Shown here: in pieces, positions 22,731-27,576 of the stretch
How the letters are laid out: every line of letters begins with the position of its first letter
Numbering within the stretch: the first letter of the stretch is position 1
Assembly (NCBI GenBank): GCA_945787795.1
Contig: CALZJD010000005.1
Span: 1-40,965, forward strand
Direction: 5' to 3'
DNA from: Thermodesulfovibrionia bacterium
GTDB lineage: Bacteria; Nitrospirota; Thermodesulfovibrionia; UBA6902
Length of the DNA: 40,965 nucleotides
The notes under the pieces: model-generated
Database searches by the model: none
Seen by the model: the letters and a program-made list of their open reading frames with translations, nothing else
Told to the model about the DNA's origin: nothing
Translations under genes and position numbers: made by a program

Positions 22731-23537
22731 CTATGAGCAACTGCTGTTCAGACATGATGCTCCGGTACCTCCTGCACATACTTCATCAAACAGTATTTTA
22801 TTTCCCTTTTCAGAAATGCCGAGTGTATGAATCTCCTTCTTCAACATATCACACGTTCCATTTCCACCGAGGTATCCGTTGACTCTGGCAACTGCAGTAG
22901 AGGAGAGCAGTCCTTTAAATGAAGGATATATGGTATTTAATTCCTCCATCAGTCCCCTGTTTCCCCGCAGCATATGCTTTTGATGGTAATCTTCGGCAAG
23001 ATAAAATTCTGTCAATGGCAATATGTCGGTCCTTATCCTTTCTTGTATCGATGAAGCAAGAAGTTCTATGGAATGTTCAGCAATGCTTTTCTGTTTATCA
23101 TCATGGTACAGGATTGCCTTTCTGTACTGCCGTGACCAGGGGGGTGATGTCGGGTCGTGGCTGTCCCAGAATATATCAAGCAACTCTTTATAGGAAAGCA
23201 TTCCCGGGTCGTAATCTATTTGTATCACCTCTGAGTGATTACCCAGATTATGATATGTCGGATGAGCTGACGATCCCCCTGCGTATCCTACACGGGTACG
23301 AACAACTCCGGGCATACTCCCGAACCGGGAGTCAGGACCCCAGAATCACCCCAATGCAAATGTTGCTGTTTCTATTACTGCCGGTATAATTTTATCTATT
23401 AGCGGATGAACTGCATGTATCGAATCCGGATGTTCTGTTTTCATTATGGTATTGCCTCTTTTGTCTTCCATGAGAATCACTACTCCCAGTATAAGGGGTA
23501 ACGATATCAAGGTTATAAGTCTTAATCTGAAGTTCAT
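22731..23537 (-). CDS. msrA: Selenocysteine-containing peptide methionine sulfoxide reductase A with N-terminal membrane anchor (268 aa)
   Basis: ORFs 23346-23537 and 22731-23315 are in one frame: ETATFALG-TGA(23346-23348)-FWGPDSRFGSMPGVVRTRVGYAGG...HSEVIQIDYDP...AEDYHQK. The TGA sits at the catalytic Cys of GCFWG. Confidence 0.92.
23306..23345 (-). promoter_or_regulatory. Bacterial SECIS element
   Basis: Directly 3' of the UGA: UUCUGGG..ACUCCCG-GUU-CGGGAGU..CCCGGAG; the apical loop starts with G, 20 nt from the UGA. Confidence 0.85.
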
Positions 23538-24160
23538 TACATACCCTTCTTTTTTTCCCTCATATCATCAGGCATGGTTTGATGCTGGATATTATCCTTC
23601 ATGTCTTTACTTTCAAATAGCATCAGATATTTCCCGTATCCCTCTTCTTCGAGTTTTTTTACTGGGATGAAGCGCAGAGATGCCGAATTCATACAGTAGC
23701 GAAGTCCGGTAGGTTCAGGACCGTCATCAAACACATGGCCGAGGTGGGAATCTGCATATCTGCTTCGCACTTCTGTCCTTGTCCTGAAAAAGCCTCTGTC
23801 CTCTTTTTCAACTATGTTTTCAGGTTCAAGAGGTCTGGTGAAACTTGGCCAGCCTGTTCCTGACTTATACTTGTCCAGAGAACTGAAGAGAGGTTCTCCT
23901 GAAACGATATCAACATATATCCCCGGTTTTTTATTGTCCCAGTATTCGTTGTCAAAGGCCCGTTCCGTATCATCTTTCTGGGTCACCTTGTATTGCAGCG
24001 GTGTCAGATTTTTCTTTATTTCATCTGGTGAAGGTTTCATGTACGTTTTCTCCGACATTTTCTGTGCAGAAACGTCCATGTCTGAGGTGTATGCATTGGT
24101 CATAGCGATACACAGGAGAACGATCAGCAGTGTATTTATTAAAATTTTCATATTGAACAT
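23537..24160 (-). CDS. msrB: Peptide methionine sulfoxide reductase B with signal peptide
   Basis: [64 protein letters not shown] before ATG 24160; TAATG overlap with msrA. Confidence 0.96.
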
Positions 24161-24189
24161 ATCCACCTCCTGAAATCACCTGTTTGACA

Positions 24190-24218
24190 GGAAAGGTGAG
24201 ACATTGCCCCACCTTCCC
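24190..24218 (-). other. Intercistronic hairpin (no U-tract on the coding strand)
   Basis: GGGAAGGTGGGGC-AAT-GTCTCACCTTTCC between the spondin gene and msrB. Confidence 0.55.
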
Positions 24219-24238
24219 TTTCTCTACTCATATTATTG

Positions 24239-25305: not shown

Positions 25306-25312
25306 AGTTGTT

Positions 25313-26791
25313 TTATTTATAAACCGGCAGGTGAAAGGTAAATGTAGTCCCTGAATTCTGCACGCTCGTTACCTCGATAGACGTCCCGTGCAATTCCAGG
25401 ATTTTTTTTGTCACGGCAAGACCCAGCCCTGAATGAGAAGACTTGCCCTTTCTGCTTCTGTCAGTCTGATAGAACCGGTCGAATATGCGGGGAAGTGCAT
25501 GCTCAGGTATGCCGCAGCCTGTATCACTTACCTGTACAGTGATTTTTTCCTGATCATGGTCAGTCAGCACGATGCTGATAGATCCTTCTTCAGGTGTGTA
25601 ACGAAGCGCATTGTCCAGCAGGTTTTCCATGACCCGCTCGATCATCGCTATATCAGCATAGGCAAACGGTATTTCCTTTCCGATATTTGTCACGATGTTG
25701 ATCTTCCGTTCCCTGGCGGTTAACGCAAATTTCTGTACGATATCCTGTACCAGCTCACTCAGGCTGAACGGTTCTGCATGTACGACCATGTCATCTGCCT
25801 CAAGTTTGGCAAGTTCAAAAAGATCACTGATTAATTTGCTGAGACGCTCACAATGGCTGACCGCTATTTTTAGATAGTTTCTCCGCTCCTCTGATGACAG
25901 GCTCTCATCTTTTAACAGAAGGGTCTCAATATATCCCTGCATGGTTGCCAGAGGCGTCCGCAGGTCATGTGATACATTTGCTACCAGCTCACGTCTCATT
26001 GCGTCAGACTTCTCCAGTTTATCCATCTGGGAGTTGATTCTTTCTGTCATTTGCCAGAATGTCAGGCCGAGCCTGTCTATTTCATCATGCATGCTCTCAT
26101 GGCCGCTTAACGGTAGATGATGTTCCTGCAGAGGCATGCCGCTTTCATATTTTTCCATAACAGCTGCAAGGCGTTTTAACCGCCGTGTCAGAAATGCAAA
26201 GATAATCAATCCGGCTATCAATGCAACGATAAGGCTTATCGCTATTACCCGGATACTGAGCTGGAGAATATAACTCCCCTGGATTTTCTGAATGATAGTG
26301 TCATATGTCTCACCACCCAGAATTACGTACAGATATCCTTCAAGTCTGTCTTCCGGTTTAATAGGAGCAGCAGTAAAAACCTTTTTCCCGTTTGCATCCC
26401 GCGGATCATCGCCGAGCAGAGGCAGGGGAACCTGCCCGCTGATCATTTGTTTTACAGGCACAAGATCAACTCTCTTACGTTTTACCCTGCCGGGCTCTGC
26501 AGAAAAAGCAAGGATGCTGCCCTCGCGGTCAAGGAGGTAAATCTCAATACTTGGATTTATCACCATGAGCATATGAAATATTTCCTTGAGAGCTTCCTGA
26601 TTGACCTGATTGTCCTGCAGAATAATTTGTTCAGCTACGATGAGACCGGCAAGTTCCCGGTTGAGCTTCTGGTTAACTTCCTGCTGATATTGCTCGGTTG
26701 CATAAACGCTGATAATAATAAAAGAGACCCCTATTAAAAAAAATAATCCGAGCAGCACAAGGGCCAGTTTTGCATACAGTGATCTCAGCAT
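25313..26791 (-). CDS. Sensor histidine kinase (2 TM, periplasmic domain, HAMP, HisKA, HATPase)
   Basis: DEIDRLG (HAMP), NVSHDLRTPL, NLLDNALRYT, DTGCGI, IFDRFY, GLGLAV. Confidence 0.96.
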   Translation of the reverse strand: MLRSLYAKLALVLLGLFFLIGVSFIIISVYATEQYQQEVNQKLNRELAGLIVAEQIILQDNQVNQEALKEIFHMLMVINPSIEIYLLDREGSILAFSAEPGRVKRKRVDLVPVKQMISGQVPLPLLGDDPRDANGKKVFTAAPIKPEDRLEGYLYVILGGETYDTIIQKIQGSYILQLSIRVIAISLIVALIAGLIIFAFLTRRLKRLAAVMEKYESGMPLQEHHLPLSGHESMHDEIDRLGLTFWQMTERINSQMDKLEKSDAMRRELVANVSHDLRTPLATMQGYIETLLLKDESLSSEERRNYLKIAVSHCERLSKLISDLFELAKLEADDMVVHAEPFSLSELVQDIVQKFALTARERKINIVTNIGKEIPFAYADIAMIERVMENLLDNALRYTPEEGSISIVLTDHDQEKITVQVSDTGCGIPEHALPRIFDRFYQTDRSRKGKSSHSGLGLAVTKKILELHGTSIEVTSVQNSGTTFTFHLPVYK

Positions 26792-27507
26792 CAGTCACCT
26801 TCCCGGCTGAAGTCGGCAAATTTATATCCAACTCCCCAGACCGTGAGGATATAGCGCGGCTGGGCCGGGTTTTCTTCTATCTTGGAACGAAGGCGGTTAA
26901 TATGAGAGTTGACGGTATGCTCATACCCTTCATGACTGTATCCCCACACCAGGTCCAGTAATTGCGACCGTGTATAGACCCGTCCCGGATGCTGTGCAAA
27001 ATGTAACAGCAGGTCAAATTCCTTCATCGTTACATCAATCGGTTTGCCATCAAGCGTCACACTCCGCTTTTCAATGTCTATTTCCATATCCCCTGCAAGG
27101 ATATTATCAGGCACCTCTTCAGTTTCATGATTCTTCATCTTGTCCACCCGCCGGATTATTGCTTTTACTCTTGCCATAAGTTCCATAATGCTGAACGGTT
27201 TTGTCACGTAATCATCAGCCCCGATTTCAAGACCGATGACACGGTCCATTTCAGAGGATTTTGAAGTCAGCATCAATATGGGAACATAGGAGGATTTACT
27301 GCGCAGGCGTTTGCAGATTTCAAGGCCGTCAAGACCGGGCAGCATAAGGTCCAGAATGATAAGGTCATACTGGTCAGCTTCTGCCTTTGCAACACCAGAG
27401 ACACCATCAAGCGCAATGTCAACGATAAATGAAAGATCCCTCAGGTGCAGCTCAAGCAGTTGGGCGAGTTCCCTGTTGTCTTCGATGATCAGAATACTTT
27501 TTCCCAT
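26791..27507 (-). CDS. OmpR/PhoB-family response regulator
   Basis: IIED, LDLMLPGLDG, GADDYVTKPF, winged-helix HTVNSHINRLRSKIE..ILTVWGVGYKF. Confidence 0.97.
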   Translation of the reverse strand: MGKSILIIEDNRELAQLLELHLRDLSFIVDIALDGVSGVAKAEADQYDLIILDLMLPGLDGLEICKRLRSKSSYVPILMLTSKSSEMDRVIGLEIGADDYVTKPFSIMELMARVKAIIRRVDKMKNHETEEVPDNILAGDMEIDIEKRSVTLDGKPIDVTMKEFDLLLHFAQHPGRVYTRSQLLDLVWGYSHEGYEHTVNSHINRLRSKIEENPAQPRYILTVWGVGYKFADFSREGD

Positions 27508-27559
27508 AGTAACAGACCTGTATCCTGTTTATATTACAATTTTATTATAATCATCAATT

Positions 27560-27576
27560 ATCACAGAAAAGTCACG
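27560..27576 (-). promoter_or_regulatory. Probable autoregulatory response-regulator site
   Basis: ATCACA-N5-GTCACG, 11-bp period, same orientation as the 25087 array, 53 bp upstream of the regulator ATG. Confidence 0.65.

Follow-up and report, generated by a model that had tools for sequence, protein, structure and literature searches.

A candidate two-component regulon of the cell envelope that joins a spondin-domain protein to exported methionine sulfoxide reductases in a Thermodesulfovibrionia bacterium

The stretch of DNA analyzed here comprises 40,965 nt (41 kb; positions 1-40,965) of contig CALZJD010000005.1, from an 87% complete genome assembly of a Thermodesulfovibrionia bacterium (GCA_945787795.1) and is referred to below as the window. 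On its minus strand, positions 22731-27576 carry five consecutive, co-oriented genes for a response regulator (RR), a histidine kinase (HK), a spondin-domain protein and the methionine sulfoxide reductases (Msr) MsrB and MsrA. We read this locus, with a probability of roughly 0.6, as a two-component regulon of the cell envelope that was built in two layers, exported Msr enzymes having been added behind spondin. In the old layer, common to several phyla, the regulator and kinase would control their own promoter and that of a secreted spondin, each through a YGTGAY-N5-YGTGAY box at the position of the -35 element. In the young layer, that of the window's family, an exported MsrB with a Sec-type signal and a membrane-anchored, selenocysteine-containing MsrA (Sec-MsrA) of the Clostridium oremlandii type would stand behind spondin, and read-through of an intervening stem-loop would switch on the repair of periplasmic methionine sulfoxide (Met(O)) together with spondin. 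Further boxes would extend the regulon to a second spondin-domain lipoprotein gene and to an ArsM-family methyltransferase gene. The truly undescribed piece is the widespread two-component and spondin module with its candidate operator, and the Msr part is lineage-specific.

The order, orientation and TGATG and TAATG couplings of the five genes had been described in a first-pass annotation made from the letters of the window, and were borne out by the open reading frame (ORF) coordinates and by profile searches, as follows:

26791-27507, minus strand: RR of the OmpR/PhoB family, 238 aa (Response_reg and Trans_reg_C, 99 bits each, E about 2e-28 each)
25313-26791, minus strand: HK, 492 aa (HAMP; HisKA, 73 bits; HATPase_c, 108 bits)
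24239-24934, minus strand: spondin, 231 aa (Spond_N PF06468, 27.1 bits, cut-off 24; NF038123, 144 bits, cut-off 40)
23537-24166, minus strand: MsrB (TIGR00357, 206 bits, cut-off 113; SelR, E 1e-47)
22731-23537, minus strand: MsrA, 268 aa, with an in-frame TGA read through (TIGR00401, 128 bits, cut-off 108)

The RR and HK genes have base 26791 in common (TGATG, a 1-nt overlap), and msrB and msrA share base 23537 (TAATG); spacers of 378 bp and 72 bp separate HK from spondin and spondin from msrB, respectively. With a receiver plus winged-helix RR adjoining a HisKA/HATPase_c kinase, the pair belongs to the OmpR/PhoB-type class of two-component systems, and none of the NCBIfam equivalogs of named regulators or kinases reached its cut-off for either protein. 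The export or anchor segments that had been noted on spondin, MsrB and MsrA were seen in all three translated N-termini, which were read by eye. Spondin begins with the hydrophobic segment MKQKVLIIIGCLMALTLLITNGYA/D, MsrB likewise has an N-terminal hydrophobic segment, and the corresponding segment of MsrA looks like a signal anchor because it has no obvious cleavage site. From these N-termini we infer that all three proteins are exported.

Two copies of a repeat motif were found, one upstream of each of the two units:

27560-27576, minus strand: box 1, CGTGAC-N5-TGTGAT, a direct repeat with an 11-bp period and a candidate RR box
25087-25103, minus strand: box 2, CGTGAT-N5-CGTGAT, a candidate RR box before spondin

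The claim that a single motif precedes both units thus stood up to counting: YGTGAY-N5-YGTGAY has exactly two matches in the window against 0.04 expected, and two or more matches were obtained in none of 100 shuffles. Box 1 is followed 10 nt downstream by TATAAT (27544-27549), ahead of the RR gene, and box 2 by a conserved element, CCTGTTATCCT (25071-25081), that may be an extended -10. Conservation was assessed by comparing the window locus with homologous loci from five other genomes of the same family. Ahead of the RR gene, all five relatives have the same box at the same distance from TATAAT (6/6 family loci), and in each of the six the region upstream of spondin had the box followed by the conserved element CCTGTTAT (CCTG(T/C)TA). 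The same box architecture was present in two further family genomes, in which a 152-aa secreted protein replaces spondin. Because of its position and conservation, the box is very probably the operator of the regulator.

To place the locus among other spondin loci, a survey was made with one genome per species, which yielded at least 587 confirmed loci; the best 80 of these were used, and they come mostly from Gammaproteobacteria, with some from Nitrospirota and Acidobacteriota and one from Omnitrophota. When residues 1-200 of the window's kinase, comprising its first transmembrane segment (TM1), periplasmic domain and second transmembrane segment (TM2), served as query, the sensor region matched in 37 of the 80 loci at 33-53% identity, with HK ORFs of the window-kinase clade lying within 1.5 kb of spondin. 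A kinase was found beside spondin in 23 of the 48 loci having at least 3 kb of sequence on both sides, and in 31/61 of those having at least 3 kb upstream; its position was upstream on the same strand in 28 loci, divergent upstream in 5, and downstream in 3. Since spondin (74 loci), HK (37) and RR (33) were the ORF clusters that alone stood out, every other cluster being present in no more than five loci, the core unit is regulator-kinase-spondin. A related box, GTGAY-N6-7-GTGAY, was sought within 400 bp upstream of spondin in 72 of the 80 loci; the eight excluded were six without a clustered spondin ORF, the rest having the gene on the opposite strand or fewer than 350 bp of sequence ahead of it. 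It was found in 23/72 distant loci, compared with 0/72 in the reversed sequence and 4/72 when the opposite strand was scanned; 200 shuffles averaged 0.21 (maximum 2).

The minor clusters in these loci comprised thioredoxin-2/glutaredoxin/rhodanese proteins (4 loci), DUF1223 (4), gshA/gshB (3), MbnB/DUF2063 (3), RND efflux (5) and ECF sigma factors, and lend the neighborhoods a faint flavor of thiol redox or stress. In three Competibacteraceae loci (L036, 10642-11466; L039; L064), the gene immediately after spondin encodes a DUF1223 protein with a CSSC motif, and a Pyrinomonadaceae locus (L079) has a DUF1223 gene about 2 kb from spondin. The msr genes were rare in the survey: outside the family, msrA occurred in 2/80 and msrB in 1/80 spondin loci, so that a general association of spondin and this kinase with msr, as had been envisaged, was not found, and Msr is a lineage-specific addition to an older two-component and spondin module. 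In the gammaproteobacterium Ca. Contendobacter, a gene for an exported MsrA lies directly upstream, on the same strand, of RR-HK-spondin-DUF1223.

Within the class of the window's organism, spondin was detected in 7/301 sampled genomes, all but one of them in the window's family, and 8 of 50 family genomes, the window's own counted, have a kinase of this clade. The genes that follow RR-HK in these eight genomes are:

Window: spondin, MsrB, Sec-MsrA
G029: spondin, MsrB, Sec-MsrA
G081: spondin, MsrB, Sec-MsrA, with an extra Cys-type MsrA just upstream of the regulator
G065: spondin, Sec-MsrA
G131: spondin, MsrB
G051 (single-contig genome): spondin in three broken pieces, MsrB
G091: 152-aa secreted protein without a family match, exported fused MsrAB
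G127: the same 152-aa protein, no msr

An exported Msr is therefore encoded directly behind the regulated gene in 7/8 family genomes with the kinase, including one in which spondin has been exchanged. In G051 (L103, 9837-10497), the three pieces of spondin are separated by TAG and TAA stops and frame changes, and kinase, regulator and MsrB are intact; as this genome is a single contig, the breaks may reflect real decay or assembly indels. The 152-aa protein (L115, 8308-8766, minus strand; L116, 11512-11970, plus strand) has no Pfam or NCBIfam match and contains DPDGDG and FECPLL motifs.

The congener G131 has a second locus, in which the box and CCTGTTAT precede a gene for a membrane-anchored VPGCxxT thioredoxin-like protein and then a gene for an exported Cys-type MsrA. 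The VPGCxxT protein matched the model for VPGUxxT thioredoxin-like type 2 proteins (NF041383) with E 1e-59 and 202 bits, below the cut-off of 275. There is a weak match between the window's MsrA and positions 143-200 of the 287 in this model, which may for that reason include an MsrA-like part. No close copy of the VPGCxxT protein was found in the window's genome, where the best tblastn match (32% over 97 residues), located on another contig, was a small thioredoxin-like ORF with UxxC. A small thioredoxin-like ORF at C54:6652-6918 (minus strand) has an in-frame TGA in a U-P-A-C motif and is a possible further selenoprotein. The proposed link between the two-component system and MsrA/MsrB repair accordingly survives in the family, through the 7/8 genomes and the box-bearing operon of the congener, but does not extend to other phyla as a general link.

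The MsrB gene starts at a GTG at 24166 or, more likely, at an ATG at 24160 behind AGGAGG, and its product carries the catalytic motif RYCMN, in agreement with RYCxN. Only with readthrough of the TGA at 23346-23348 does the msrA frame stay open all the way from 23537 to 22731; the product then contains ...ATFALG-U-FWGPDSRFGS, with U64 at the position of the catalytic Cys (GUFWG). An identical TGA, in the context ALG-U-FWG, is present in msrA of three other family genera. The codon is followed by a hairpin resembling a selenocysteine insertion sequence (SECIS):

23304-23348, minus strand: UGA (23346-23348) and SECIS-like hairpin, with the apical stem-loop at about 23316-23332

The hairpin, ACUCCC-GGUU-CGGGAGU, is found sixteen bases past the UGA. 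Its apical part (stem ACUCCC/GGGAG, loop GGUUC) is identical in the four genera even though most of its bases are at synonymous positions, the sole difference being the final base, a synonymous Ser position, which is C instead of U in one relative (L102). The extended fold in the window has a free energy of -23.3 kcal/mol (z -1.74), and an Rfam scan of the window matched no family, with no curated SECIS or riboswitch match. SelB is encoded in the genome (354 bits, cut-off 242). Reading of the UGA as selenocysteine is thus supported, and with it the Sec-MsrA label of the first-pass annotation, by the GUFWG readthrough, the three further genera, the conserved hairpin and selB. A cytoplasmic Cys-type MsrA is also encoded in the same genome, on contig C32.

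The selenoprotein MsrA subfamily is already known, the MsrA of C. (Alkaliphilus) oremlandii being reported as a natural selenoprotein (PMC4333827). This protein is also the closest solved relative of the window's MsrA (PDB 4u66, E 9e-57, query residues 56-243; also 4lwj). The two are alike in having Sec at the catalytic position, and the alignment takes in the unusual helical domain at the C-terminus as well as the catalytic domain. They differ in two additions to the window's protein, a hydrophobic anchor that takes up about 55 residues at the N-terminus and a tail rich in Cys (C..SC....CS) at the C-terminus. The solved C. oremlandii chains, of 209-217 residues, have no N-terminal extension of this kind, as the alignment starts at their residue 8. 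Both the hydrophobic segment and the tail are kept in the three other genera, and with them the window's MsrA looks extracytoplasmic.

The 72-bp spacer between spondin and msrB contains one conserved feature:

24186-24222, minus strand: RNA stem-loop between spondin and msrB, 14 pairs, no T-run

The stem-loop is present in all six family loci, with compensatory changes at 8 of its 14 pairs; a T-run follows it in 1/6 loci, and it went uncalled in the terminator scan. The structure may serve in attenuation or in stabilizing the mRNA while letting some transcription pass, and msrB and msrA are most likely co-transcribed with spondin by read-through of this structure. Several observations weigh against the two-layer regulon. 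The conserved stem-loop separates spondin from msr and could instead be a terminator; a promoter-like pair of hexamers, ATGACA-18-AATAAT, is found at 24261-24232, just before msrB; there is no box directly before msrB in the 72-bp spacer; and msr is absent from nearly all two-component and spondin loci outside the family. In addition, the two-component system of G127 has no msr downstream, two congeners have no msrA after msrB, and the count of 7/8 corresponds to only a handful of independent events because the eight genomes are kin. That the regulator binds the box is something we infer from position and conservation, and Aragorn found no tRNA-Sec in the 87%-complete assembly (33 tRNA lines).

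The first four of these observations favor an arrangement in which the two-component system controls itself and spondin only, and msr is transcribed independently, the stem-loop acting as a terminator and a constitutive promoter lying in the last codons of spondin. We consider this unlikely. The stem-loop is without a T-run in 5/6 genomes and is not called as a terminator, and the promoter scan as a whole was not enriched over shuffles (15 sites vs 12.4 +/- 4). Moreover, Msr is found behind the regulated gene in 7/8 family genomes, even where spondin has been replaced, and the unlinked thioredoxin-like and MsrA operon of the congener has the same box and promoter element.

Exact matches to the box numbered seven in the whole genome, against none in a reversed control. 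On contig C325 (1-819, minus strand; L135), three tandem GTGAT half-sites stand before a second spondin-domain gene of canonical type, truncated where the contig ends, whose product is a lipoprotein (Spond_N, E 1e-47; lipobox LIIIGC). On contig C33 (17673-18794; L134), the box TGTGATAGAAATGTGAT precedes a gene for an ArsM-family S-adenosylmethionine methyltransferase (353 aa, below NCBIfam cut-offs); its 9-nt spacing to a -10-like hexamer matches that at the RR promoter, and it is conserved in three genomes of the genus (the C33 site, G131:C77 [L127] and G051 [L128]). An incomplete gene for a MerA/RclA-like flavoprotein disulfide reductase lies just upstream of the ArsM-family gene. Two other matches were set aside as chance occurrences: that on C39 is upstream of a 241-aa ORF of uncertain identity and lacks the matching -10 spacing, and that on C86 sits inside an ORF.

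In the kinase, TM1 and TM2 enclose a periplasmic domain of about 145 aa (roughly residues 33-178) and are followed by HAMP, HisKA and HATPase_c. In the predicted model, a long helix continues from TM1 into a mixed alpha/beta periplasmic domain with a local pLDDT (predicted local distance difference test) of about 63-82; it contains helices at 65-78 and 110-118, strands at 82-87, 92-96, 126-128, 136-144 and 152-158, and a further helix leading into TM2. By its secondary structure the modeled domain looks PDC-like, and a search of its sequence against those in the PDB gave nothing below E 0.9. Among 36 full-length kinases, the invariant periplasmic residues were Q41, A48, M76, E83, Y85, G91, P112, P130, F139, Y153 and Y155. 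The first-pass annotation had pointed to a Met pair in 'IFHMLMVINP' as a candidate sensor. One half of this proposal stood, M76 being invariant (36/36), but M74 is variable (present in 15/44 alignment rows, six partial or spurious rows included) and is not among the conserved columns, so there is no conserved pair. Located where a helix ends, M76 could serve as a redox switch or could simply be a core or structural residue. An envelope oxidant is our leading guess for the stimulus of this kinase, although we would put its chances somewhat below even.

In the 36 full-length kinases, no His or Cys is conserved within the periplasmic domain. This argues against a CusS-like metal site and bears on a second interpretation of the locus, in which the system would act like CusS/CopS and sense metal or metalloid stress, with spondin as a periplasmic metal binder (His cluster and acidic sites) and Msr recruited because metal stress oxidizes periplasmic Met. 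In its favor, no NCBIfam model other than that for heavy-metal sensor kinases, TIGR01386, aligns over the full kinase with its periplasmic part (residues 4-489), but its score of 186.3 bits is below the cut-off of 292.55, and the matching RR model likewise falls short (187 vs 279). The ArsM-family methyltransferase gene carries the box, and a report links copper stress in E. coli to repair of CusF by MsrPQ (PMC9302797). Metal-related genes near the distant loci are few and inconsistent (RND efflux genes in 5/80, MbnB/DUF2063 genes in 3/80). Spondin itself speaks on both sides: H52 is invariant, H189, H191 and H195 are nearly so, and the family has conserved acidic residues and acidic tails, but D131, D156 and E160 fit the Ca2+ site of F-spondin and not a transition-metal site. 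On balance, we regard a metal sensor as improbable.

For the modeled structure of spondin (pLDDT 85.4), Foldseek returned mindin (3d34, E 1.1e-11) and F-spondin (3q13, E 3.6e-10) with TM-scores of 0.57-0.68; the next match after these FS domains had E 1.4e-2, and the protein thus has the FS-domain fold. Foldseek also matched a tardigrade Mn-dependent peroxidase whose fold is C2-like (7dbt), but at a probability of 0.28 this was too weak to use. D131, D156 and E160 are invariant in the bacterial family and align to the PSPDW and DAGTD motifs of mindin (PSPDW corresponding to PTNDGF and DAGTD to DAGTE), the motifs from which the Ca2+ ligands of F-spondin are reported to come (PMC3117680). Unlike the animal proteins, with whose domains it shares 16-18% identity, the bacterial protein is single-domain and periplasmic or secreted, and its C-terminal part has a Cys pair (C166/C174), H-I-H-x-G-I-H-G and DWRNP. 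The family is large: 3118 of 3593 candidate proteins matched at E <= 1e-3, many of them with 50-60% identity. Longer or fused forms amounted to three proteins made up of spondin domains only, so no fusion was informative, and an ESM Atlas search gave only further unnamed spondin clusters. In the literature listings and abstracts searched, we found none on the function of bacterial spondin-domain proteins, the hits being to animal spondins or incidental mentions.

Spondin could also be an accessory of the sensor instead of an effector, that is, a periplasmic co-sensor or feedback inhibitor that tunes the kinase in the manner of CpxP or ZraP. Spondin is the sole gene that accompanies the kinase across phyla, it carries the regulator's box, and both proteins are unusually conserved between phyla (spondin 50-60%, sensor domain 33-53% identity); nevertheless, we find such a role doubtful, as two family genomes keep the kinase (63-71% sensor identity) with the 152-aa secreted protein in the spondin slot, one congener's spondin reads broken beside an intact two-component system and MsrB (assembly error possible), and about half of the spondin loci with enough flanking sequence have no adjacent kinase. 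A broader and equally speculative proposal is that the trio forms an envelope stress module of Pseudomonadota, Nitrospirota and Acidobacteriota. Spondin would then be an effector with a Ca2+/His site (antioxidant, metal-handling or chaperone), the kinase would sense oxidant via M76, and Msr would repair both the envelope and the sensor Met, closing a negative feedback loop like that of HprS-MsrP with thiol/selenol chemistry. We would not expect this elaboration to hold in full.

If the two-layer regulon is correct, the exported Msr enzymes need a source of electrons. The first-pass annotation found no donor in the window, and indeed no CcdA, DsbD or thioredoxin was present among the ORFs scanned, which were the five cluster genes and five neighboring ORFs; the gap in recycling that this appeared to leave is narrowed by DsbD_TM proteins encoded elsewhere in the genome. 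One candidate is a 243-aa CcdA-like protein (DsbD_TM) on contig C121. The other is an 856-aa protein on C10 (L118, 5459-8678, minus strand) that combines a DUF255 thioredoxin domain, a middle part similar to six-hairpin/glycosyl-hydrolase-88 proteins, and DsbD_TM. The gene for this fusion is directly followed, on the same strand, by a second MsrB gene (193 aa, with a signal peptide), and together they may constitute a self-contained periplasmic system for MsrB reduction. DsbD/CcdA-type membrane proteins of this sort probably supply reducing power to the Msr enzymes of the window.

Two other features were noted around the cluster:

27587-27614, minus strand: terminator-like hairpin with a T-run, a 12-pair stem followed by ATTTCTATTT
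25127-25306: two opposed 11-bp GTTCAA/TTGAAC arrays (25127-25170 and 25237-25306; period 11; 4.3 and 6.5 copies)

The hairpin is predicted to end the upstream DDAH-like gene and to insulate the RR promoter. The two arrays flank about 70 bp, and a shorter copy is present at the same place in a congener (L103); the repeat may be a MITE-like element or an array to which a protein binds. They were rejected as operator arrays and excluded from the regulon because GTTCAA-N5 is a dispersed genomic repeat that is not specific to the locus, having 25 matches in the genome with at most one mismatch (contigs C2, C18, C25, C86, C88, C90, C161 and others) against none in the reversed control. The genes that flank the cluster are unrelated to it: an ArgZ-like dihydrolase and a DDAH-like protein are encoded upstream, and a small membrane ORF and FdhD downstream. 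The upstream pair (27618-29646, minus strand) encodes an ArgZ-like arginine dihydrolase C-terminal-type protein (407 aa) and then a DDAH/amidinotransferase-like protein (289 aa), and the two ORFs overlap by 65 bp if taken from their first start codons.

To our knowledge, two-component control of envelope Met repair is known from few systems, namely HprSR-MsrPQ, ModRS-MsrAB and Cpx-MsrP in Salmonella. The locus described here adds a third regulator lineage, a defined candidate operator and an apparently extracytoplasmic selenoprotein MsrA. It also offers a first handle on bacterial spondin-domain proteins, a large family with 3118 protein matches and at least 587 genome loci. A scan for the box lets the regulon be read in any genome, and the box, the sensor domain and M76 are directly testable with reporters and mutants.

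The suggestion that the locus is an analog of HprSR built on MsrA/MsrB was supported in part, as far as the link between a two-component system and Met repair in the window's family is concerned. As in the HprSR (YedVW/HypVW)/hiuH-msrPQ system of E. coli, a two-component system with a periplasmic sensing loop would switch on periplasmic Met(O) repair, and the HprSR operon, like the spondin locus, also encodes a small periplasmic beta-sandwich protein, hiuH. The window's system is not an ortholog of HprSR, however: the HprR model NF008567 scored 162.5 bits on the RR, short of its cut-off at 353 and below the scores of many other regulator models, and no match to Oxidored_molyb (PF00174, the MsrP type) was found in the 87%-complete genome. 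Repair would here be carried out by thiol/selenol MsrA and MsrB and not by a molybdoenzyme, MsrP, with MsrQ. Moreover, Met72 and Met153 of HprS are reported to be critical for signaling (bioRxiv 10.1101/2021.09.09.459708), whereas the kinase of the window's clade has one conserved periplasmic Met, and its output across phyla is spondin, not Msr. In the anaerobe Fusobacterium nucleatum, ModRS is reported to be linked to MsrAB and to regulate it for oxidant defense (PMC9239216). That system resembles the present one in the genetic linkage of a two-component system to msrA/msrB, but the F. nucleatum locus has linked trx and ccdA genes, a fused MsrAB and no spondin, whereas in the window spondin comes first, MsrB and Sec-MsrA are separate, and the DsbD_TM genes (C121, C10) are unlinked. 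As judged from its gene content and, for HprSR, from the HprR score, the locus belongs to neither HprSR-MsrPQ nor ModRS-MsrAB, although it appears to be a variation on the same theme.

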